DNA of 64,000 nt. Origin: Eledone cirrhosa. Taxonomy: Eukaryota. Where the stretch lies: the NCBI GenBank assembly GCA_964016885.1, contig OZ024744.1, forward strand, positions 82,646,001 to 82,710,000. Reading direction: 5' to 3'. Below the pieces are notes generated by a model. The model worked only from the letters and a program-made list of their open reading frames with translations, ran no database searches and was not told the origin of the DNA. How positions within the stretch are numbered: position 1 is the first letter of the stretch; every line of letters starts with the position of its first letter. Positions 7,716-55,296 of this stretch are shown piece after piece. Made by a program: the position numbers and the translations under genes.

Positions 7716-7894
7716 GTAATAATAATAAATTTGAAGACTAAAATCCAAAGAAGGCTCGATAAGGATAAATATATATCAAATATATAAGAACCGTAGAGCA
7801 AATATTTATTTTTCAGAAGATCCCGTTAAGGGTGAAAGCAGCGATACTTTGCTTAAACTTTAATATGTTATTTTAATATATATATATGTGTATG

Positions 7895-16630: not shown

Positions 16631-17136
16631 GTGTGTGTTAGTGTATGTATGTATATATATATATAGTCCTGGCTTCTATTTCTAAGTTTCCATTTTAATT
16701 TGCATATCACAATGCAACAGCACAGCACACCATTTTTTATTCCTATATGCCTTTCCCTTCGCTGTGACCTGTCTTTTGCACTTCCCTTACTGCTATCCTC
16801 TTTCTCTCTCCCCCTTCTCACTCCTTTTTTTCTTACTTTCTTTCACCCACTCTGGTAGTCCCCCTCTCTTGGCTAACCTCTTCCTCGCACTTTCACTCAC
16901 TCACTCTCTGCTATTCACCCTCTCTCTCACTTCCTCCATCGTCCCATACCGTGCGGAATTCTTTCCTCGCTTACATTTCGCACGGTTAAGATGTGTCTTT
17001 CGTCTTCTCGTCAATATTTGCAAGTTCTTATGTTCAAATGAATCATTGACTTGATTTTCTCATTTTTTTCCCCTCTTTACGTTGCCTCACCATTCGTGTT
17101 TGTTTATCTGTCCCTCTTTCTCCACCCAATTCTGTT

Positions 17137-17239
17137 TATCCCAATAACTTATTTTAGTTATTGTTCGCGCTAGCCTGAGGTATCTGGTCTTTAATGCGAA
17201 GAAATACATATGATGGCTAGTGACCACTGATGATGTATA
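17137..17239 (+). ncRNA. Candidate permuted/pseudoknotted hammerhead-like RNA with kink-turn, copy 1
   Basis: GGUAU-C^UGGUC ... GAAAUAC ... GACCA-CUGAUGA, plus CUAGCC/GGCUAG, UCGCG/UGCGA and AAUAACU/AGUUAUU pairings. Confidence 0.7.
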
Positions 17240-17710
17240 GTCCAGGCTTCTATTTCTAATTCTTCATTTTAATTTGTATATCACATTTGCAACATCACAG
17301 CACGCCATTTTTCATTCCTATATGCTTTACCCTTCGCTGTGACCTGTCTTTTTCTCTTCCCTTACTGCTATACTCTTTCTCTCTCCCCCTTCTCTCTTCT
17401 TTTTCTCTTACTTTCTTTCACCCACACTGCTAGCCCCCCCCCTCTCGGTTAGCCTCTTCATCATACTTTCACTCACTCACTCTCTGCTATTCACCCTCTA
17501 TCTCATTTCCACCATCGTCCCACACCGTGCGGAATTCTTTCGTCGCTTACTTTTCCCACGGTTAAGATGTGTCTTTCGTCTTCTCGTCAATATTCGAAAG
17601 TTATTATGTTCAAATGAATCATTGACTTGATTTTCTCATTTTACCCCTCTTTACGTTGTCTCACCATTCGTGTTTGTTTATCTGTCCCTCTAACTCCACC
17701 CAATTCTTTT

Positions 17711-17814
17711 TATCCCAATAACTTATTTTAGTTATTGTTCGCGCTAGCCTGATCTATCTGGTCTTTAATGCGCAGAAATACATATGATGGCTAGTAGACC
17801 ACTGATGATGGATA
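17711..17814 (+). ncRNA. Candidate permuted hammerhead-like RNA, copy 2
   Basis: Same layout. Stem I UGGUCU/AGACCA, closing UAUCC/GGAUA, one C-C mismatch in stem III. Confidence 0.62.
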
Positions 17815-18272
17815 TTCCTGGCTGCTATTTCTAATTCTTCATTTTAATTTGTATATCACATTTGCAACAACACAGCACCCCATTTTTCATTCCTATATGC
17901 TTTCCCCTTCGCTGTGACCTGTTCTTTTCTCTTCCCTTACTGCTATACTCTTTCTCTCTCCTTCTCCCTCTTACTTTCATTCACCCCCTCTGCTAGTCAC
18001 CCTCCCTCGGCTAGCCTCTTCCTCACACGTTCATTCACTCACTCTCTGCTATTCACCCTCTCTCCCACTTCCTCCATCGTCCCACACCGTGCGGAATTCT
18101 TTCGTCGCTTACTTTTCCCACGGTTAAGATGTGTCTTTCGTCTTCTCGTCAATATTTGCAAGTTCTTATGTTCAAATGAATCATTGACTTGATTTTCTCA
18201 TTTTTCCCCTCTTTACGTTGCTCCACCATTCGTGTTTGTTTACCTGTCCCTCTTTCTCCACCCAATTCTTTT

Positions 18273-18373
18273 TATCCCAATAACTTATAGTTATTGTTCG
18301 TGCAAGCCTGAGATTTCTGGTCTTTAATGCGCAGAAATACTTATGATGGCTAGTAGACCACTGATGATGGATA
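18273..18373 (+). ncRNA. Candidate permuted hammerhead-like RNA, copy 3 (more decayed)
   Basis: Same layout. The 5' strand of stem III is mutated (GAUUU). Core CUGAUGA and GAAA are intact. Confidence 0.55.
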
Positions 18374-18792
18374 TTCCTGGCTGCTATTTCTAATTCTTCA
18401 TTTTAATTTGTATATCACATTTGCAACAACACAGCACCCCATTTTTCATTCCTATATGCTTTCCCCTTCGCTGTGACCTGTTCTTTTCTCTTCCCTTACT
18501 GCTATACTCTTTCTCTCTCCCCCTTTTTAATTTGTATATATATATATATATACATATATATACATATTGTGTGTGTGTGTGCGTGTGGCTACGGTATGTC
18601 ATATATCAAATCATATATTCGCAGTACCTTTGAAATATGTATAATAAAGTATATATTTTGGTTATGTGAATATTTTTCATTTGTTAACATTTTTAATAAT
18701 ATTAAAAACTCTAGGAAATTCCACTGTTGAGTGCTTCTAATTTATTGTAAAATTGTATTCGTTAGTAATCGACGAACCATAATAACCTATGG

Positions 18793-22610: not shown

Positions 22611-24030
22611 CATATATATATATACACTCACTCTCACTTTCATACACACACATACACACAGACATACTCAGAGACATACACATACATATATACACACTCT
22701 CTCTCTCTCTCACTCAATCTCACATACACATACACACATTAACATACATATATACACACATACATATATACACACATACACACATACATATATCCACTCT
22801 TTCTCTCTCACTCAATCTCACACACACATACACACATACACACATACATATATACACGCCCTCTCTCTCTCACTCTCTCTCACACACACATACGCACATC
22901 CACACATACACAGACATACACACATATATATGGATATATGTATGGATATATGTATGTGTGTATGTGTGGATGTGTGTGTGAGATTGAGTGAGAGAGACAG
23001 AGAGAGTAGATATATGTATCTCTCTCTCACTCAATCTCACACACACACACATACACACATACATATATCCACTCTCTCTCACACACATTCACACACACAT
23101 ACACACATACACACACATACATCCACTCTCTCTCTCTCAACATACATATATCCACTCTCTCTCTCACTCAATCTCACATACATATATACACACATACACA
23201 CATACATATATACACTCCACTCTCTCTCTCACACATTCACACACACATACACACATACACACATACACACATACATATATCCACTCTCTCTCTCTCACAC
23301 ATTCACACGCACATACACACATACACACATACATATATACACTCTCTCTCACACACATTCACACTCACACTCACACATACACACATACACACACACATAT
23401 ATACACTCCACTCTCTCTCGCTCAATCTCACACACACATACACACATACATATATCCATTCTCTCTCTCACACACACATTCACACACACATACATACATA
23501 CACACATACACACATACATATATCCACTCTCTCTCTCTCACACACATACACACACACACACACACATACACAGATACATATATCCACTCTCTCTCACACA
23601 CATTCACACATACATACACGCATACACTCATACACATACATATATCCACTCTCTCTCACACACATTCACACTCATACTCACACATACACACATACACACA
23701 CATATATATATATACACTCCACTCTCTCTCTCACTCAATCTCACACACACATACACACATACATATATCCACTCTCACTCACACAGTCACACATACACAC
23801 ATACATATATACACTCTCTCTCTCACACACACATTCACTCTCACAGTCACACATAAACACACACATACACACAGACATATATCCACTCTCTCTCTCACAC
23901 ATTCACTCTCAGTCACACACACACACACACACACATACATATATCCACTCTCTCTCACACACATTCACACACACACACACATACACACATACATATATCC
24001 ACTCTCTCTCTCACACATTCACTCTCACAG

Positions 24031-24071
<41 letters not shown>

Positions 24072-24528
24072 CAAACATATATACACTCTCTCTCACACAC
24101 ATTCACTCTCACAGTTACACACACACACATACACACATACACACATACATATATCCACTCTCTCTCACACACATTCACACACACACACATACACACATAC
24201 ACACATACATATATCCACTCTCTCTCACACACATTCACACACACACACACATACACACATACACACACATATATCCACTCTCTCTCACACACATTCACTC
24301 TCACAGTCACACACACACACATACACACATACACACACATATATCCACTCTCTCTCACACACATTCACTCTCACAGTCACACACACACACATACACACAT
24401 ACACACATACACATATACATATATCAACTCTCTCTCACACACATTCACTCTAACAGTTACACACACACACATACACACATACACACATACATATATCCAC
24501 TCTCTCTCACACACATTCACTGTCACAG

Positions 24529-24562
<34 letters not shown>

Positions 24563-24971
24563 ACACACACATACACACATACACACATACATATATACAC
24601 TCTCTCTCACACACATTCACACACACACACACATACACACATACATATATCCACTCTCTCTCTCACACATTCACTCTCACAGTCACACACACACACACAC
24701 ACACACCCACACACACACATACACGCAAACATATATACACTCTCTCTCACACACATTCACTCTCACAGTTACACACACATATACACACATACACACATAC
24801 ATATATCCACTCTCTCTCACACACATTCACTCTCACAGTTACACACACATATACACACATACACACATACATATATCCACTCTCTCTCACACACATTCAC
24901 ACACATACACACATACACACATACACACATACATATATACACTCTCTCTCACACACATTCACTCTCACAGT

Positions 24972-25002
<31 letters not shown>

Positions 25003-25941
25003 ACATACACACATACACACATACATATATACACTCTCTCTCACACACATTCACTCTCACAGTTACACACACACACATACACACATACATATATACACTC
25101 TCTCTCACACACATTCACTCTCACAGTTACACACACACACATACACACATACACACATACATATATCCACTCTCTCTCACACACATTCACTCTCACAGTC
25201 ACACACACACACTCACACATACACACATACATATATCCACTCTCTCTCACACACATTCACACACACACACACATACACACATACACACACATATATCCAC
25301 TCTCTCTCACACACATTCACTCTCACAGTCACACACACACACATACACACATACACACACACATATCCACTCTCTCTCACACACATTCACTCTCACAGTC
25401 ACACACACACACATACACACATACACACATACACACATACATATATCAACTCTCTCTCACACACATTCACTCTCACAGTCACACACACACACACAGACAC
25501 ACATACACAATTACATATATCCACTCTCTCTCAGACACATTCACTGTCGCAGGCACACACACACACATACACACATACACACATACATATATACACTCTC
25601 TCTCTCACACATTCACTCTCAGTCACACACACACACACACACACATACATACATCCACTCTCTCTCACACACATTCACATACACACACACATACACACAT
25701 ACAAATATCCACTCTCTCTCACACATTCACTCTCACAGTCACACACATACACACACACACACACACATACACGCAAACATATATACACTCTCTCTCACAC
25801 ACATTCACTCTCACAGTTACACACACACATACACACATACACACATACATATATCCACTCTCTCTCACACACATTCACACACATACACACATACACACAT
25901 ACATATATACACTCTCTCTCACACACATTCACTCTCACAGT

Positions 25942-25972
<31 letters not shown>

Positions 25973-26389
25973 ACATACACACATACATATATACACTCTC
26001 TCTCACACACATCCCCCTCACAGTTACACACACACACATACACACATACACACATACATATATCCACTCTCTCTCACACACATTCACAATCACAGTCACA
26101 CACACACACACATACACACATACACACACATATATCCACTCTCTCTCACACACATTCACTCTCACAGTCACACACACACACATACACACATACACACACA
26201 TATATCCACTCTCTCTCACACACATTCACTCTCACAGTCACACACACACACATACACACATACACACATACACACATACATATATCAACTCTCTCTCACA
26301 CACATTCACTCTCACAGGCACACACACACACACACACACATACACAATTACATATATCCACTCTCTCTCACACACATTCACTCTGACAG

Positions 26390-26435
<46 letters not shown>

Positions 26436-26840
26436 ACATACACACATACATATATACACTCTCTCTCACACACATTCACACTCATACTCACACATACACA
26501 CATACACACACATATATATATATACACTCCACTCTCTCTCTCACTCAATCTCACACACACATACACACATACACATATCCACTCTCACTCACACAGTCAC
26601 ACATACACACATACATATATACACTCTCTCTCTCACACACACATTCACTCTCACAGTCACACATAAACACACACATACACACAGACATATATCCACTCTC
26701 TCTCTCACACATTCACTCTCAGTCACACACACACACACACACACATACATATATCCACTCTCTCTCACACACATTCACACACACACACACATACACACAT
26801 ACATATATCCACTCTCTCTCTCACACATTCACTCTCACAG

Positions 26841-26891
<51 letters not shown>

Positions 26892-27289
26892 CAAACATAT
26901 ATACACTCACTCTCACACACATTCACTCTCACAGTTACACACACACACATACACACATACACACATACATATATCCACTCTCTCTCACACACATTCACAC
27001 ACACACACACATACACACATACACACACATATATCCACTCTCTCTCACACACATTCACTCTCACAGTCACACACACACACATACACACATACACACAAAT
27101 ATATCCACTCTCTTTCACACACATTCACTCTCACAGTCACACACACACACATACACACATACACACATACACACATACATATATCAACTCTCTCTCACAC
27201 ACATTCCCTCTCACAGTTACACACACACACATACACACATACACACATACATATATCCACTCTCTCTCACACACATTCACTCTCACAGT

Positions 27290-27322
<33 letters not shown>

Positions 27323-27852
27323 ACATACATATATACACTCTCTCTCACACACATTCACTCTCACAGTTACACACACACACACACATACACACATACATAT
27401 ATCCACTCTCTCTCACACACATTCACTGTCGCAGTCACACACACACACACACACATACACACATACACACATACATATATACACTCTCTCTCACACACAT
27501 TCACTCTCACAGTTACACACACACACACACATACACACATACATATATCCACTCTCTCTCACACACATTCACTGTCGCAGTCACACACACAGACACACAC
27601 ACATACACAAATACACACATACATATATACACTCTCTCTCTCACACATTCACTCTCAGTCACACACACACACACACACACATACATATATCCACTCTCTC
27701 ACACATTCACTCTCAGTCACACACACACACACACACATATACATATATCAACTCTCTCTCACACACATTCACTCTCACAGTTACACACACAAAACATACA
27801 CACATACACACATACATATAACCACTCTCTCTCACACATTCACTCTCACAGT

Positions 27853-27883
<31 letters not shown>

Positions 27884-28076
27884 ACATACATATATACACT
27901 CTCTCTCACACACATTCACTCTCACAGTTACACACACACACACACATACACACATACATATATCCACTCTCTCTCACACACATTCACTGTCGCAGTCACA
28001 CACACACACACACACACACATACACACATACACACATACATATATCCACTCTCTCTCACACATTCACTCTCACAGT

Positions 28077-28109
<33 letters not shown>

Positions 28110-28218
28110 ACATACATATATACACTCTCTCTCACACACATTCACTCTCACAGTTACACACACACACATACACACATACATATATCCACTCTCTCTCACA
28201 CACATTCACTCTCACAGT

Positions 28219-28252
<34 letters not shown>

Positions 28253-29498
28253 CATTCACTGTCGCAGTCACACACACACACACACACATACAAACATACA
28301 CACATACACACATACATATATACACTCTCTCTCACACACATTCACTCTCACAGTTACACACACACACACACATACACACATACATATATCCACTCTCTCT
28401 CACACACATTCACTGTCGCAGTCACGCACACACACACATACACACACATATATCCACTCTCTCTCACACACATTCACTCTCACAGTCACACACACACACT
28501 TACACACATACATATATCCACTCTCTCTCACACACATTCACTGTCGCAGTCACACACACACACATACACACATACATATATCCACTCTCTCTCACACACA
28601 TTCACTCTCACAGTCACCCACACACACATACACACATACACACACATATATTCACTCTCTCTCACACACATTCACTCTCACAGTTACACACACACACATA
28701 CACACATACACACATACATATATCCACTCTCTCTCACACACATTCACTCTCACAGTCACACACACACACTCACACATACACACATACATATATCCACTCT
28801 CTCTCACACACATTCACACACACACACACATACACACATACACACACATATATCCACTCTCTCTCACACACATTCACTCTCACAGTCACACACACACACA
28901 TACACACATACACACACACATATCCACTCTCTCTCACACACATTCACTCTCACAGTCACACACACACACATACACACATACACACATACACACATACATA
29001 TATCAACTCTCTCTCACACACATTCACTCTCACAGTCACACACACACACACAGACACACATACACAATTACATATATCCACTCTCTCTCAGACACATTCA
29101 CTGTCGCAGGCACACACACACACATACACACATACACACATACATATATACACTCTCTCTCTCACACATTCACTCTCAGTCACACACACACACACACACA
29201 CATACATACATCCACTCTCTCTCACACACATTCACATACACACACACATACACACATACAAATATCCACTCTCTCTCACACATTCACTCTCACAGTCACA
29301 CACATACACACACACACACACACATACACGCAAACATATATACACTCTCTCTCACACACATTCACTCTCACAGTTACACACACACATACACACATACACA
29401 CATACATATATCCACTCTCTCTCACACACATTCACACACATACACACATACACACATACATATATACACTCTCTCTCACACACATTCACTCTCACAGT

Positions 29499-29529
<31 letters not shown>

Positions 29530-29946
29530 ACATACACACATACATATATACACTCTCTCTCACACACATCCCCCTCACAGTTACACACACACACATACAC
29601 ACATACACACATACATATATCCACTCTCTCTCACACACATTCACAATCACAGTCACACACACACACACATACACACATACACACACATATATCCACTCTC
29701 TCTCACACACATTCACTCTCACAGTCACACACACACACATACACACATACACACACATATATCCACTCTCTCTCACACACATTCACTCTCACAGTCACAC
29801 ACACACACATACACACATACACACATACACACATACATATATCAACTCTCTCTCACACACATTCACTCTCACAGGCACACACACACACACACACACATAC
29901 ACAATTACATATATCCACTCTCTCTCACACACATTCACTCTGACAG

Positions 29947-29992
<46 letters not shown>

Positions 29993-30397
29993 ACATACAC
30001 ACATACATATATACACTCTCTCTCACACACATTCACACTCATACTCACACATACACACATACACACACATATATATATATACACTCCACTCTCTCTCTCA
30101 CTCAATCTCACACACACATACACACATACATATATCCACTCTCACTCACACAGTCACACATACACACATACATATATACACTCTCTCTCTCACACACACA
30201 TTCACTCTCACAGTCACACATAAACACACACATACACACAGACATATATCCACTCTCTCTCTCACACATTCACTCTCAGTCACACACACACACACACACA
30301 CATACATATATCCACTCTCTCTCACACACATTCACACACACACACACATACACACATACATATATCCACTCTCTCTCTCACACATTCACTCTCACAG

Positions 30398-30448
<51 letters not shown>

Positions 30449-30846
30449 CAAACATATATACACTCACTCTCACACACATTCACTCTCACAGTTACACACA
30501 CACACATACACACATACACACATACATATATCCACTCTCTCTCACACACATTCACACACACACACACATACACACATACACACACATATATCCACTCTCT
30601 CTCACACACATTCACTCTCACAGTCACACACACACACATACACACATACACACAAATATATCCACTCTCTTTCACACACATTCACTCTCACAGTCACACA
30701 CACACACATACACACATACACACATACACACATACATATATCAACTCTCTCTCACACACATTCCCTCTCACAGTTACACACACACACATACACACATACA
30801 CACATACATATATCCACTCTCTCTCACACACATTCACTCTCACAGT

Positions 30847-30879
<33 letters not shown>

Positions 30880-31409
30880 ACATACATATATACACTCTCT
30901 CTCACACACATTCACTCTCACAGTTACACACACACACACACATACACACATACATATATCCACTCTCTCTCACACACATTCACTGTCGCAGTCACACACA
31001 CACACACACACATACACACATACACACATACATATATACACTCTCTCTCACACACATTCACTCTCACAGTTACACACACACACACACATACACACATACA
31101 TATATCCACTCTCTCTCACACACATTCACTGTCGCAGTCACACACACAGACACACACACATACACAAATACACACATACATATATACACTCTCTCTCTCA
31201 CACATTCACTCTCAGTCACACACACACACACACACACATACATATATCCACTCTCTCACACATTCACTCTCAGTCACACACACACACACACACATATACA
31301 TATATCAACTCTCTCTCACACACATTCACTCTCACAGTTACACACACAAAACATACACACATACACACATACATATAACCACTCTCTCTCACACATTCAC
31401 TCTCACAGT

Positions 31410-31440
<31 letters not shown>

Positions 31441-31633
31441 ACATACATATATACACTCTCTCTCACACACATTCACTCTCACAGTTACACACACACACAC
31501 ACATACACACATACATATATCCACTCTCTCTCACACACATTCACTGTCGCAGTCACACACACACACACACACACACATACACACATACACACATACATAT
31601 ATCCACTCTCTCTCACACATTCACTCTCACAGT

Positions 31634-31666
<33 letters not shown>

Positions 31667-31775
31667 ACATACATATATACACTCTCTCTCACACACATTC
31701 ACTCTCACAGTTACACACACACACATACACACATACATATATCCACTCTCTCTCACACACATTCACTCTCACAGT

Positions 31776-31809
<34 letters not shown>

Positions 31810-32372
31810 CATTCACTGTCGCAGTCACACACACACACACACACATACAAACATACACACATACACACATACATATATACACTCTCTCTCACACACATTC
31901 ACTCTCACAGTTACACACACACACACACATACACACATACATATATCCACTCTCTCTCACACACATTCACTGTCGCAGTCACGCACACACACACATACAC
32001 ACACATATATCCACTCTCTCTCACACACATTCACTCTCACAGTCACACACACACACTTACACACATACATATATCCACTCTCTCTCACACACATTCACTG
32101 TCGCAGTCACACACACACACATACACACATACATATATCCACTCTCTCTCACACACATTCACTCTCACAGTCACCCACACACACATACACACATACACAC
32201 ACATATATTCACTCTCTCTCACACACATTCACTCTCACATACACACATACACACACACACACATATATCCACTCTCTCTCACACACATTCACTCTCACAG
32301 TCACACACACACACATACACACCTACACACATACATATATCAACTATCTCTCACACACATTCTCTCTCACAG

Positions 32373-32416
<44 letters not shown>

Positions 32417-32598
32417 ACATACATACATCCACTCTCCCTCACACACATTCACTCTTACTGTCACACATACACACATACACACATACACACAGACATATAT
32501 CCACTCTCTCTCACACACACATTCACTCTCACAGTCACACACACACACATACACACATACATATATCCACTCTCTCTCACACACATTCACTCTCACAG

Positions 32599-32639
<41 letters not shown>

Positions 32640-32655
32640 CATTCACTGTCGCAGT

Positions 32656-32689
<34 letters not shown>

Positions 32690-32857
32690 CAAACATATAT
32701 ACACTCTCTCTCTCACACATTCACTCTCACAGTTACACACACACATACACACATACACACATACATATATCCACTCTCTCTCACACACATTCACACACAT
32801 ACACACATACACACATACATATATACACTCTCTCTCACACACATTCACTCTCACAGT

Positions 32858-32888
<31 letters not shown>

Positions 32889-33353
32889 ACATACACACAT
32901 ACATATATACACTCTCACACACATCCCCCTCACAGTTACACACACACACATACACACATACACACATACATATATCCACTCTCTCTCACACACATTCACT
33001 CTCACAGTCACACACACACACACACATACACACATACATATATCCACTCTCTCTCACACACATTCACACTCACAGTCACACACACATACACACATACACA
33101 CATACATATATCCACTCTCTCTCACACACATTCACTCTCACAGTCACACACACACACACACATACACACATACATATATCCACTCTCTCTCACACACATT
33201 CACTCTCACAGTCACACACACATACACACATACACACATACATATATCCACTCTCTCTCACACACATTCACTGTCGCAGTCACACACACACACACATACA
33301 CACATACACACATACATATATACACTCTCTCTCACACACATTCACTCTCACAG

Positions 33354-33404
<51 letters not shown>

Positions 33405-33956
33405 TACATATATGCACTCTCTCTCACACACATTCACTCTCACAGTCACACACACACACACACAATACACACATACATATATCCACTCTCCCTCACACAC
33501 ATTCACTGTCGCAGTCACACACACACAAACACACACATACACACACATATATCCACTCTCTCTCACACACATTCACTCTCACAGTCACACACACACACAC
33601 ACATACACACATACATATATCCACTCTCTCTCACACACATTCACTGTCGCAGTCACACACACACACACACACACACATACACACATACACACATACATAT
33701 ATCCACTCTCTCTCACACACATCCACTCTCACAGTCACACACACACACATACACACATACACACACATATATCCACTCTCTCTCACACACATTCACTCTC
33801 ACATACACACATACACACATACACACATATATCCACTCTCTCTCACACACATTCACTCTCACAGTCACACACATATTCACTCTCACAGTCACACACACAT
33901 ACACACCTACACACATACATATATCAACTCTCTCTCACACACATTCTTTCTCACAG

Positions 33957-33994
<38 letters not shown>

Positions 33995-34896
33995 ACATAG
34001 ATACATCCACTCTCTCTCACACACACATTCACTCTCACAGTCACACACACACACATACACACATACACACATACATATATCCACTCTCTCTCACACACAT
34101 TCACACACACACACATACACACATACATATATCCACTCTCTCTCACACACATTCACTCTCACATACACACATACACACATATATATATCCACTCGCTCTC
34201 ACACACATTCACTCTCACATACACACATACACACATACATATATACACTCTCTCTCACACACATTCACTCTCACATACACACATACACACATACATATAT
34301 ACACTCTCTCTCACACACATTCACTCTCACAGTCACACACACACACATACACACATACATACATGCACTCTCTCTCACACACATTCACTCTTACTGTCAC
34401 ACACACACACATACACACATACATATATACACTCTCTCTCACACACATTCACTCTCACAGTCACACACACACACACACACACGCACACACACACACACAT
34501 ACATACATCCACTCTCTCTCACACACATTCACACTCATACTCACACATACACACATACACACACATATATATATATACACTCCACTCTCTCTCTCACTCA
34601 ATCTCACACACACATACACACATACATATATCCACTCTCACTCACACAGTCACACATACACACATACATATATACACTCTCTCTCTCACACACACATTCA
34701 CTCTCACAGTCACACATAAACACACACATACACACAGACATATATCCACTCTCTCTCTCACACATTCACTCTCAGTCACACACACACACACACACACATA
34801 CATATATCCACTCTCTCTCACACACATTCACACACACACACACACATATACACATACATATATCCACTCTCTCTCTCACACATTCACTCTCACAGT

Positions 34897-34930
<34 letters not shown>

Positions 34931-35623
34931 CAAACATATAAACACTCTCTCTCACACACATTCACTCTCACAGTTACACACACACATACACACATACACA
35001 CATACATATATCCACTCTCTCTCACACACATTCACACACATACACACATACACACATACATATATACACTCTCTCTCACACACATTCACTCTCACAGTCA
35101 CACACACACACACACACACACATACACACACATACACACATACACACATACATATATACACTCTCTCTCACACACATTCACTCTCACAGTTACACACACA
35201 CACATACACACATACACACATACATATATCCACTCTCTCTCACACACATTCACTCTCACAGTCACACACACACACACACATACACACATACATATATCCA
35301 CTCTCTCTCACACACATTCACACTCACAGTCACACACACACACACATACACACATACACACACATATATCCACTCTCTCTCACACACATTCACTCTCACA
35401 GTCACACACACACACATACACACATACACACACATATATCCACTCTCTCTCACACACATTCACTCTCACAGTCACACACACACACATACACACATACACA
35501 CATACACACATACATATATCAACTCTCTCTCACACACATTCACTCTCACAGTCACACACACACACACACACACATACACAATTACATATATCCACTCTCT
35601 CTCACACACATTCACACTCACAG

Positions 35624-35667
<44 letters not shown>

Positions 35668-36443
35668 ACATACACACATACATATATACACTCTCTCTCA
35701 CACACATTCACTGTCGCAGTCACACACACACACACACACATACACACATACACACATACACACATACATATATACACTCTCTCTCACACACATTCACTCT
35801 CACAGTTACACACACACACACACACACATTCACACATACATATATTCACTCTCTCTCACACACATTCACTCTCACAGTCACACACACACACACACATACA
35901 CACATACATATATCCACTCTCTCTCACACACATTCACTGTCGCAGTCACACACACACACACGCACACACACATACACACATACACACATACATATATCCA
36001 CTCTCTCTCACACACATTCACTCTCACAGTCACACACACATACACAGATACACACACATATATTCACTCTCTCTCACACACATTCACTCTCACATACACA
36101 CATACACACACACACACACATATATCCACTCTCTCTCACACACATTCACTCTCACAGTCACACACACACACATACACACCTACACACATACATATATCAA
36201 CTCTCTCTCACACACATTCTCTCTCACAGTCACACACACACACACACACACACATACACACATACATACATCCACTCTCTCTCACACACATTCACTCTTA
36301 CTGTCACACATACACGCATACACACATACACACAGACATATATCCACTCTCTCTCACACAGACATTCACTCTCACAGTCACACACACACATACACACATA
36401 CATATATACACTCTCTCTCTCTCAGACACATTCTCTCTCACAG

Positions 36444-36483
<40 letters not shown>

Positions 36484-36717
36484 ACATACATATATACACT
36501 CTCTCTCACACACATTCACACACATACATACATACACACATACATATATCCACTCTCTCTCTCTCACACACATTCACACACACACACATACACACATACA
36601 TATATCCACTCTCTCTCACATACATTCACTGTCGCAGTCACACACACACACACACACATACACACATACACACATACATATATACACTCTCTCTCACACA
36701 CATTCACTCTCACAGTT

Positions 36718-36750
<33 letters not shown>

Positions 36751-36994
36751 TACATATATGCACTCTCTCTCACACACATTCACTCTCACAGTCACACACA
36801 CACACACACAATACACACATACATATATCCACTCTCTCTCACACACATTCACTGTCGCAGTCACACACACACAAACACACACATACACACACATATATCC
36901 ACTCTCTCTCACACACATTCACTCTCACAGTCACACACACACACATACACACATACATATATCCACTCTCTCTCACACACATTCACTGTCGCAG

Positions 36995-37044
<50 letters not shown>

Positions 37045-37290
37045 ACATACATATATCCACTCTCTCTCACACACATTCACTCTCACAGTCACACACACAC
37101 ACATACACACATACACACACATATATCCACTCTCTCTCACACACATTCACTCTCACATACACACATACACACATACACACATATATCCACTCTCTCTCAC
37201 ACACATTCACTCTCACAGTCACACACACACACATACACACCTACACACATACATATATCAACTCTCTCTCACACACATTCTCTCTCACAA

Positions 37291-37332
<42 letters not shown>

Positions 37333-38207
37333 ACATAGATACATCCACTCTCTCTCACACACATTCACTCTTACTGTCACACATACACACATACACACAT
37401 ACACACATACATATATACACTCTCCCTCACACACATTCACACACATACACACATACACACATACATATATCCACTCTCTCTCTCTCACACACATTCACAC
37501 ACACACACATACACACATACATATATCCACTCTCTCTCACACACATTCACTCTCACATACACACACATACACACATACATATATCCACTTTCTCTCACAC
37601 ACATTCACTCTCACATACACACATACACACATACATATATCCACTCGCTCTCACACACATTCACTCTCACATACACACATACACACAGACATATATACAC
37701 TCTCTCTCACACACATTCACTCTCACATACACACATACACACATACATATATCCACTCGCTCTCACACACATTCACTCTCACATACACACATACACACAG
37801 ACATATATACACTCTCTCTCACCACACACATTCACTCTCACATACACACATACACACATACACACATACATATATACACTCTCTCTCACACACATTCACT
37901 CTCACAGTCAAACACACACACATACACACATACATACATCCACTCTCTCTCACACACATTCACTCTTACTGTCAAACACACACACATACACACATACATA
38001 TATACACTCTCTCTCACACACATTCACTCTCACAGTCACACACACACACACACACGCACACACACACACACACATACATATATACACTCTCTCTCACACA
38101 CATTCACTCTCACAGTCACACACACACACACACACGCACACACACACACACACATACATACATCCACTCTCTCTCACACACATTCACTCTCACAGTCACA
38201 CATACAC
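22570..38207. repeat. ~15.6-kb compound CA/CT satellite (variable ~45-75-bp monomer) with higher-order structure
   Basis: Monomer catacatatatccactctctctcacacacattcactctcacagtca(ca)n. The plus strand is nearly G-free. Confidence 0.95.
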
Positions 38208-54200: not shown

Positions 54201-54770
54201 CCATGTGCAACCATGCAGTATTCTTCTCCCCGTATTTTTCACATATATTTACCTAAACTGCGATTCTGTGTTTCTCTCTTTCTCTCTTACTGCTCCCTCG
54301 TTCTCTCTGTTTCTCTTACTTTCTTTCGTCCTCTCTGTCATGTCAGTTAACACTTTCTCTCTACTGACCTCTTCCTCGCACTTCCACTCACCCACTCTCT
54401 GTTTCTCCCCTTCTCACTTCCCCCCGTCCGCTACGAACCCGATTTTCCTTCTTTCTTACATCGGATTCACTAGCAGAAGGTCTGTTTCTTACTCGCACAT
54501 GTATTCACCCAGCTTATACTGACAGAATAACCATGTTGCTTGTGTTTCTTTCTATCTTCGGTTAGCTTTCCCCTGTGTTGTTTACTTGTCTCACTCGTTT
54601 TACGCGTTTCAATTGTCCTAATAACTTATTTTAGTTATTGTCGCACCAACGTGAGGTATATGATTTTTAATGCGATGAAATACCAATGATCGTTGGCAAA
54701 TCACTGATGAGGGACTCATTTTATAACATGTAATCCATGTGCAACCATGCAGTATTCTTCTCCCCATATT

Positions 54771-54775
<5 letters not shown>
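54200..54775 (+). mobile_element. ~534-bp pyrimidine-rich unit + 41-bp restart (family D), distantly related to family C
   Basis: tccatgtgcaaccatgcagtattcttctcccc at 54200 and 54734. It lies between (GTA)n and (TA)n and carries the structured motif. Confidence 0.75.
54615..54715 (+). ncRNA. Candidate permuted hammerhead-like RNA with kink-turn, divergent and best-paired copy
   Basis: GUCC-uAAUAACU(uauuuu)AGUUAUUg-UCGCA-CCAACG-UGA-GGUAU-A^UGAUUU-uuaa-UGCGA-u-GAA-AUACC-aau-GA-u-CGUUGG-c-AAAUCA-CUGAUGA-g-GGAC. Confidence 0.75.
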
Positions 54776-54848
<73 letters not shown>

Positions 54849-54851
<3 letters not shown>

Positions 54852-55296
54852 GAGGTTATATTTAATTTGTTGGGATTCAACAAGCTTATATATTTTTATA
54901 ACAGTTATAAAGCACTCAACAGTTTAGTGGAGTAAATATACAATATATTAATAAATGGAAACTATATTTATAAAACCATATTTATTTTATTAAACATATT
55001 TCAAGGGCAACCAAGGCAAATAATGGTGCGCTTTCATCGGATAAAATACAGATTTGTTTTATAAATAAATATTGACATACCCGGAAAAAAGACAACCTTA
55101 ACGGTTGGGGCTATCCAGGAAGCCCCAACCGTTAAGTTTGTCTTTTTTACGGGTATGTCAATATTTATTCATAAAACAAATCTGTATTTTATCTGATGAA
55201 AGCGCATCATTATTTGCCTCGGTTGCCCTTGAAATATGTATAATAAAATAAATATGGTTTTATAAATATAGTTTCCATTTATTAATATATTGTATA
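54849..55296. mobile_element. Fold-back PLE-type element with hammerheads
   Basis: Arms ~54936-55112 and ~55121-55296. Homologous to 43087-43302. Confidence 0.75.
55185..55250 (+). ncRNA. Minimal type I hammerhead (inverted copy at 54983-55048 has CCGAUGA)
   Basis: UAUUUUAU-CUGAUGA-AAGcGCA...UGCcCUU-GAAA-UAUGUA-UA^AUAAAAUA. Confidence 0.8.

Follow-up and report, generated by a model that had tools for sequence, protein, structure and literature searches.

The stretch of DNA analysed here, referred to as the window, comprises 64,000 nt of Eledone cirrhosa (positions 82,646,001-82,710,000 of the forward strand of contig OZ024744.1, assembly GCA_964016885.1). Its plus strand carries, at 54202..54774, a copy of a non-autonomous retroelement, termed family D. 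The copy has 1.07 units of a 535-base monomer, with a direct repeat at 54202/54737, a pyrimidine-rich body in which no long ORF was seen, and a 3′ end at a (TA)n run (54775..54848), which is the likely insertion target. Directly 3′ of this copy lies a long inverted repeat with arms of ~130 bases (55000-55290), which resembles a miniature inverted element. A second family, termed C, forms a plus-strand tandem array, flanked by (TA) runs, of ~3.2 units that measure 559-574 bases each (16663..18535). The window also contains a CA-rich satellite of 15 kb with a period of 70-72 bases (23432-38207).

The family D copy contains a putative structured RNA motif at 54615-54715, all parts of which are on the plus strand. 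At its 5′ end is a bridging strand, which begins with the 5′ strand of helix P1 (54615..54618, pairing with 54712-54715, the bases 3′ of CUGAUGA) and continues with a hairpin of 8 pairs (54619..54640; pairs 54619-54626/54633-54640), i.e. one arm of the junction found in place of stem II, and with the 5′ strand of a pseudoknot (54641..54645), the partner of which is 54671-54675, the bases preceding GAAA. The next segment, 54646..54654, combines the 5′ strand of a distal stem (54646-54651/54691-54696) with the non-bulged strand of a K-turn (UGA). Block S (54655..54666) consists of a stem III strand, the triplet AUA, in which H17 is A54660, and a stem I strand. It is followed by a four-base linker, the 3′ strand of the pseudoknot, position 11.1, and block G (together 54667..54684, with GAAA at 54677-54680), and then by the K-turn bulge strand and the 3′ strand of the distal stem (54685..54696). 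Block C, at 54698..54715, comprises a stem I strand, CUGAUGA (54704-54710), position 10.1, and the 3′ strand of P1. Stem III (54655-54659/54680-54684) and stem I (54661-54666/54698-54703) were read as strand pairs in the sequence. All strands that a first-pass annotation had named for this motif were recovered at their places.

The 5′ to 3′ order of the hammerhead blocks is S-G-C (S 54655-54666, G 54677-54684, C 54698-54710), and a descriptor that covers all six orders matched this copy as SGC only. The core letters of hammerheads, i.e. CUGANGA, GAAA, U16.1, and an H17 that is not G, are all present. In the 78 copies that were parsed, H17 is A in 50, C in 28, and G in none. As in type SGC, only a short linker, of four bases (54667-54670), separates stem I from the stem II side. 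The extra helix by which stems I and II of that type are joined at their far sides is absent; the connectivity via the distal stem and the pseudoknot is found instead. The window has two core matches, compared with 0.02 per dinucleotide-shuffled window (100 shuffles). An Rfam scan of the window at the gathering level gave no match, and a scan of seven loci with E ≤ 1 gave no hammerhead or twister match. By its sequence, the motif is hammerhead-like in every test except that for a canonical stem II, and it is therefore classed as a variant of type SGC and not as a standard hammerhead. Because the hammerhead core places the cut there, cleavage is predicted to occur, likely, 3′ of A54660. That the motif cleaves itself is likely.

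Instead of a canonical stem II, in which they would pair with one another, the arm 3′ of CUGAUGA and the one 5′ of GAAA share at most one pair, and both arms pair with opposite ends of one continuous 5′ bridging strand that bears the hairpin between its two paired ends. The bridged arms would form a four-way junction, with the core as the fourth arm. The single pair between positions 10.1 and 11.1 is G-U, A-U or U-A in large subfamilies, is unpaired in at least 1,818 of 12,082 genomic matches (at least 15%), and has no spare base at its position in L291, one of the Naiad-like loci discussed below. The first-pass annotation had counted this pair as a one-pair stem II that is preserved by compensatory change; it is also unpaired in 10 of the 32 aligned copies (see below), a sample enriched for such copies. 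The pair is optional, because the Naiad versions join the core straight to two helices.

A K-turn consists of a three-base bulge followed by tandem G-A/A-G pairs, located between two stems. This sequence pattern is present between stem III and the distal stem in this copy and in most subfamilies, while one subfamily has a U in place of a G in the K-turn strands. We therefore regard the site next to stem III as a predicted K-turn. The kink may let the distal stem fold back, because its 5′ strand leaves the pseudoknot and its 3′ strand enters stem I. According to the available text of Eckert et al. (2023, PMC10085705), the SGC connection is hard to square with the hammerhead crystal structure.

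For the analysis of covariation, 32 copies were hand-picked from 114 distinct intact copies to represent ~10 subfamilies. The invariance of the core in this alignment is partly built in, because the search pattern required the core. Pair cells were intact in 92.5% of the cases, compared with 26-45% paired in slid controls. Two-sided changes were found at 17 of the 35 pairs and at some pairs occurred in 13 of the 32 copies. The covariation score was 0.296 versus 0.145 after shuffling, and 0 of 500 shuffles, a test that ignores the kinship of the copies, reached a score as high. Two-sided changes affect five of six pairs in the distal stem, four of eight in the hairpin arm, three of six in stem I (95.3% paired), and one of four in P1 (90.6% paired). 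Stem III is paired in 94.4% and nearly invariant. The pseudoknot is paired in 88.8%, with two-sided changes at two of five pairs, in one sequence each, and with the last pair open in 11 of the 32 copies. The distal stem, stem I, and the hairpin are strongly supported; the pseudoknot and P1, which vary little, have weak support.

These values modify the original proposal that every helix has been kept by compensatory change. It holds for the distal stem, for half of the pairs in stem I and the hairpin, and for a single pair of P1, but not for every helix: for the pseudoknot, the cited change (G-U to A-U) affects one side only. Invariance had been claimed for the hairpin and the K-turn strands, and both vary once more subfamilies are added. 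Selection on an RNA fold common to the diverged subfamilies, which was the conclusion drawn, is backed by the covariation in the 32 copies. In contigs that were aligned regardless of the core (three sets from one sample, 90% likeness), seven differences fall inside the motif; none of them lies in GAAA or CUGAUGA, and one is at H17 (A to C).

RNAalifold, applied unaided, recovered the distal stem and no other helix. In the nested ensemble of the 54615-54715 copy, the probabilities are 0.99 for P1, 0.87 each for the hairpin and stem III, and 0.36 for the distal stem. Nested folding gives no score for stem I and the pseudoknot, as both cross the nested helices. The folding energy of the nested scaffold exceeds the minimum by 4.4 kcal/mol in this copy, and the z-score of the copy is only −1.54. 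For the distal stem, the probabilities are 0.84-0.99 in three other copies of the genome (L034, L032, and L126), so that the 54615-54715 copy, which had been recommended as the best test substrate, deserves this rank among the window copies only. Individual genomic copies often break helices, which probably reflects neutral decay after insertion, the signal for the fold residing between subfamilies. The sequence that had been quoted for family C is a majority reading, and each of the three family C copies in the window (plus strand, near 17138-17238, 17712-17813, and 18273-18372) breaks at least one helix. The identity between the C and D units does not peak at the motif alone, as had been expected, because a block at unit bases 200-250 also reaches 0.80 (shuffled mean 0.61, maximum 0.72).

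The core pattern has 12,082 matches in the genome, compared with 8 for the reversed control. A variant pattern added an older family F (250 matches versus 2). Copies of family F (L113-L141) are ~75-80% alike and have kept the core and the K-turn; they have a G10.1-C11.1 pair and no hairpin arm. For the D motif, there are 1,633 candidates, and the best 40, which were scored, are all 99-100% identical; family D is therefore young. The units are 510-630 bases long, have a low GC content, and are related beyond the motif. Tandem continuation was found for 15 of 121 copies. Among 30 D loci, the element end is at unit position 42-54 in 28, while the 5′ starts vary and the lengths range from 213 to 890 bases. 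D elements end at or beside a simple repeat, which is (TA)n in nearly all cases. In 97 of 106 non-tandem copies, (TA)4 follows 10-110 bases after the core, versus a background of 19.5%. Such an anatomy is that of target-primed retrotransposition and of animal retrozymes (PMC7229834, available text). A search for an autonomous element with a D-type unit yielded none, and the Penelope-like ORFs near the examined motif copies are antisense or unrelated.

Several neighbouring observations were made during the survey of the genome. A set of loci at C1:153.75-153.83 Mb (L176-L186) comprises tandem repeats at a spacing of 3.6-11 kb, the unit of which seems to hold a tRNA-like sequence. An inverted duplication of a different G-block/C-block sequence (L112:1420-1600) is perhaps an SGC family that has lost its S block. 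A short element with an ordinary-order hammerhead (L071:7269-7366 on the minus strand and 7793-7890 on the plus strand) shares 14 letters, starting from CUGAUGA, with subfamily E. The P1 letters of subfamily E are the stem II letters of L071, a possible trace of how the permutation originated.

Type SGC is a non-circular permutation of the hammerhead and was defined by Eckert et al. (2023, PMC10085705). In the available text of that study, the only non-circular permutation in the genome of a known organism is one doubtful bacterial GCS candidate. The motif has the S-G-C order, the full core, a short stem I linker, and a pseudoknotted core in common with the published SGC ribozymes, although their linker has about three bases and that of the motif four. 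The CSG order of the same study is found also in related Naiad loci. In contrast, the published examples form stem II directly and connect it to stem I by an additional helix, whereas the motif has the bridged junction; they stem from metatranscriptome contigs, whereas the motif has ~12,000 chromosomal copies; and they were shown to cut, whereas the motif is known from its sequence alone. Neither the replacement of stem II nor the K-turn at stem III appears in the main text of PMC10085705 on SGC ribozymes, as far as available.

The second known system is that of the animal non-LTR retrozymes (PMC7229834; 10.64898/2026.07.22.740005, available parts). Like the elements described here, they are short, ORF-less, low-GC units that are both dispersed and in tandem, have one hammerhead per unit, reach thousands of copies, and occur beside Penelope-like elements. 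They differ in having type I hammerheads and units of 150-450 bases, compared with SGC and 510-630 bases, and circular RNA is known in their case, while the present elements are known as DNA. The accessible text of the 2026 preprint on retrozymes (Li et al., 10.64898/2026.07.22.740005) uses type I models only, and a 2026 paper, in the part available, mentions alternative permutations by citation only. In the open literature, as far as the texts were accessible, we found no report that animal genomes or Naiads contain SGC or CSG hammerheads. In the same genome, canonical Penelope-like elements have minimal type I hammerheads (L071, L342-L346), which are likewise situated ~60-110 bases before a (TA)n 3′ end; these hammerheads, however, have the ordinary order and a hairpin stem II, and they are devoid of a bridging strand and a K-turn.

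The third system, the Naiads, is a clade of Penelope-like retrotransposons. According to the available text of Craig et al. (2021, PMC8557442), Naiads prefer (TA)n and lack canonical hammerheads, and some bear core words that fail the descriptors and are listed merely as 'HHR_core' or 'HHR_half_core'; in the text seen, these words are not folded as permuted ribozymes. Their (TA)n ends, partial tandems, and inverted 5′-truncated copies are matched by the present elements, and these traits are common to other Penelope-like clades according to the same source. In contrast, Naiads have an ORF with an N-terminal GIY-YIG, a CxC linker, a DKA motif, and an RT, and the units described here are devoid of such an ORF.

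Reading the published Naiad records in the available supplement of PMC8557442 by eye, we found a non-circular layout at 17 consensus ends. At least 11 of 54 records have S-G-C with a bridging or similar strand, i.e. the same layout in the 3′ tail as in the motif; these are Beroe, Clytia-3, three Acropora, Morbakka-2, Pomphorhynchus, Eulimnadia, two Octopus, and one further record. Six nematode records have C-S-G, and a reading of the nematode motifs as ordinary order was rejected. The two Octopus records share the K-turn strands and the hairpin loop with the motif. The same reading shows the complete core to be retained in Naiads that range from ctenophores to molluscs. The Paralithodes and Didymodactylos records, read whole, have no such motif by eye. 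The ends of Naiad-1_Chem and Naiad-2_Chem (600 letters in the available records) have no hammerhead core; they share a GC-rich motif that is perhaps another structured RNA.

A scripted test used 47 Naiad-like loci (L283-L329) that were chosen by protein alone, the first sequence of the search alignment (P0002) having the N-terminal GIY-YIG, CxC linker, DKA motif, and RT. Among the 24 loci that extend for 500 bases or more beyond the 3′ side of the match, five have a hammerhead core 3′ of the ORF, all in sense orientation and all non-circular, i.e. SGC in L291 and L297 and CSG in L285, L292, and L293. The controls gave 0 of 24 for antisense and 1 of 960 for shuffles. Each of these loci holds a single motif copy. 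L291, which was missed by a scan restricted to 1.2 kb, and L297 have the same six-helix layout as the motif with unrelated letters. L292 and L293 have an ordinary 5-pair stem II at the same position 3′ of the ORF. The C-S-G core of L285 (4900-5080) has a multi-helix junction on the stem II side, with two hairpins and a helix before GAAA. The other 19 of the 24 loci, several of which are from the same bins or partial, gave no hammerhead match, and an Rfam scan (E ≤ 0.5) of 14 loci without hammerhead core gave no hammerhead or twister. In L286, L289, L309, and L305, SECIS matches follow the Naiad-like ORFs, three of them above the gathering score, as in selenoprotein Naiads. The Naiad-like contigs stem from prokaryote genome bins, in which they are most likely host contamination.

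In the Eledone genome, all Naiad-like RT remnants that were scored are fragments or contain stops, and no intact Naiad was found in 70 matches from the best 81 of 4,034 candidates. A decayed motif was recognised by eye behind the remnants in 4 of 25 loci, with stem III and K-turn letters that match the motif; nhmmer with the motif profile missed these decayed copies. A DKASNN-type pattern for the Naiad RT had 34 matches versus 4, mostly noise and one remnant, a short Naiad remnant used as a query found no protein, and a search of viral contigs with the Naiad alignment found none. Core-pattern matches in viral (1) and metagenome (34) contigs were rejected as chance matches, as none passed the structure descriptor. 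From these sequence comparisons, an origin of the motif in the 3′ tail of Naiad retrotransposons is likely, and the motif is likely to be among the self-cutting RNAs that Naiads were said, in the available text, to lack.

A possible helper is a young Penelope-like element with 29,858 candidates in the genome, the best 150 of which were scored and have 94-100% identity and open frames of up to 951 aa. Five near-complete copies (L342-L346) encode a C-terminal GIY-YIG, a Cx4CxxC linker, and a DKG motif and carry, ~105 bases upstream of (TA)n, a minimal type I hammerhead. The 3′ end of the young element, T-run-CA before (TA)n, is similar to that of the motif units; the shared end consists of few A/T-rich letters, with a crude background count. 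BLAST of the units against five near-complete copies of the young element revealed no other likeness. Because the Naiad ORFs found in this genome are decayed, the young element, which is of the Neptune/Nematis type, is on balance the better guess for the helper of today.

We propose the following mechanism. The motif, which lies near the fixed 3′ end of small, RT-less mobile elements, would be a hammerhead-type RNA of type SGC. The place of stem II would be taken by the pseudoknot helix, which the four-base linker would tie to stem I, in place of a contact between loops I and II, while the K-turn would bend stem III back and so bring its strands to stems I and II. Cleavage after H17 would divide the transcripts of tandem copies into unit-length RNAs, which could be circularised by a host ligase, as has been shown for retrozymes (PMC7229834, available text). 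Starting at an internal site located ~115 bases downstream of the cleavage position, reverse transcription onto nicked (TA)n DNA would then cross the junction once or twice, yielding partial tandems; crossing the junction would require a circular or an uncut multimeric template.

Several alternative explanations have to be weighed. The one that leaves the ribozyme intact holds that an active Naiad, rather than a Neptune/Nematis-type element, mobilises the young copies. The Naiad-type motif, the preference of Naiads for (TA)n (PMC8557442, available text), and the restriction of the scoring to the best 81 of 4,034 candidates are compatible with this view, which we nevertheless regard as rather unlikely, because every scored Naiad-like match is a fragment or stop-bearing, cephalopod Naiads are old remnants according to the available text of PMC8557442, and a young (TA)n-ending element is abundant. 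An alternative that concerns the activity itself is that the fold is kept without a useful cutting rate, e.g. as a protein-binding or packaging signal that is recognised by the helper RT or a K-turn-binding protein. It would explain why a canonical stem II is lacking, why positions 10.1 and 11.1 are so often unpaired, and why K-turn-type strands are kept in most subfamilies. However, a binding signal would not be expected to obey the hammerhead rule of A or C and never G at H17, to retain all core letters from ctenophore to mollusc Naiads (in the records available), or to alternate with CSG versions that have an ordinary stem II at the same position (L292, L293). We consider it improbable.

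Another possibility is that C, G, and S are joined from three successive tandem units in circular order, or in trans, and that the local pairings are incidental. Copies are often in tandem, and dimeric cleavage is known from amphibian retrozymes (PMC7229834, available text), but the single pair between the CUGAUGA and GAAA arms leaves the blocks without a stem II whatever their order, covariation is seen in the local distal stem and hairpin, and the Naiad-like loci have only one copy, making this scenario very improbable. Similarly low is the chance that the pattern is inherited likeness among repeat copies in the absence of structural selection: although the subfamilies are related across the whole unit, kinship is ignored by the shuffle control, and stem III, P1, and the pseudoknot vary little, this explanation is at odds with the two-sided changes at 17 of the 35 pairs, in up to 13 of 32 copies, and with the six-helix layout built from unrelated letters in L291 and L297. 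Least credible is a box C/D small nucleolar RNA-like element with UGAUGA as box C and CUGA as box D. Its K-turn strands with a U-U pair would be like the C/D kink, but CUGAUGA does not have the leading purine of box C, the letters beside the kink change with compensation, the Rfam scans, at the gathering level or at E ≤ 1, revealed no match to a family of this kind, and the motif is part of a mobile repeat.

We therefore prefer the reading as an SGC hammerhead, and assign a probability of about 0.7 to the whole account, i.e. that the motif would cut after A54660, is derived from a Naiad tail, and is carried by an RT-less mobile family. The wider interpretation is somewhat less certain but more likely than not: Naiads across animal phyla may house SGC and CSG hammerheads, including an active form with a four-way junction and, in this lineage, a stem III bent by a K-turn, and the ribozyme, now present in more than 12,000 retrozyme-like copies that ride on another Penelope-like clade, may have survived the loss of its Naiad parent. 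If true, animal chromosomes would be a place where non-circularly permuted hammerheads occur at high copy number, an explanation would be at hand for the 'HHR core' words reported without a fold in Naiads, and the hammerhead core would work without the stem II hairpin, a long-assumed requirement. Standard descriptors for types I-III and Rfam miss the SGC order, and therefore the counts of animal ribozymes and of circular RNAs made by ribozymes may be too low.
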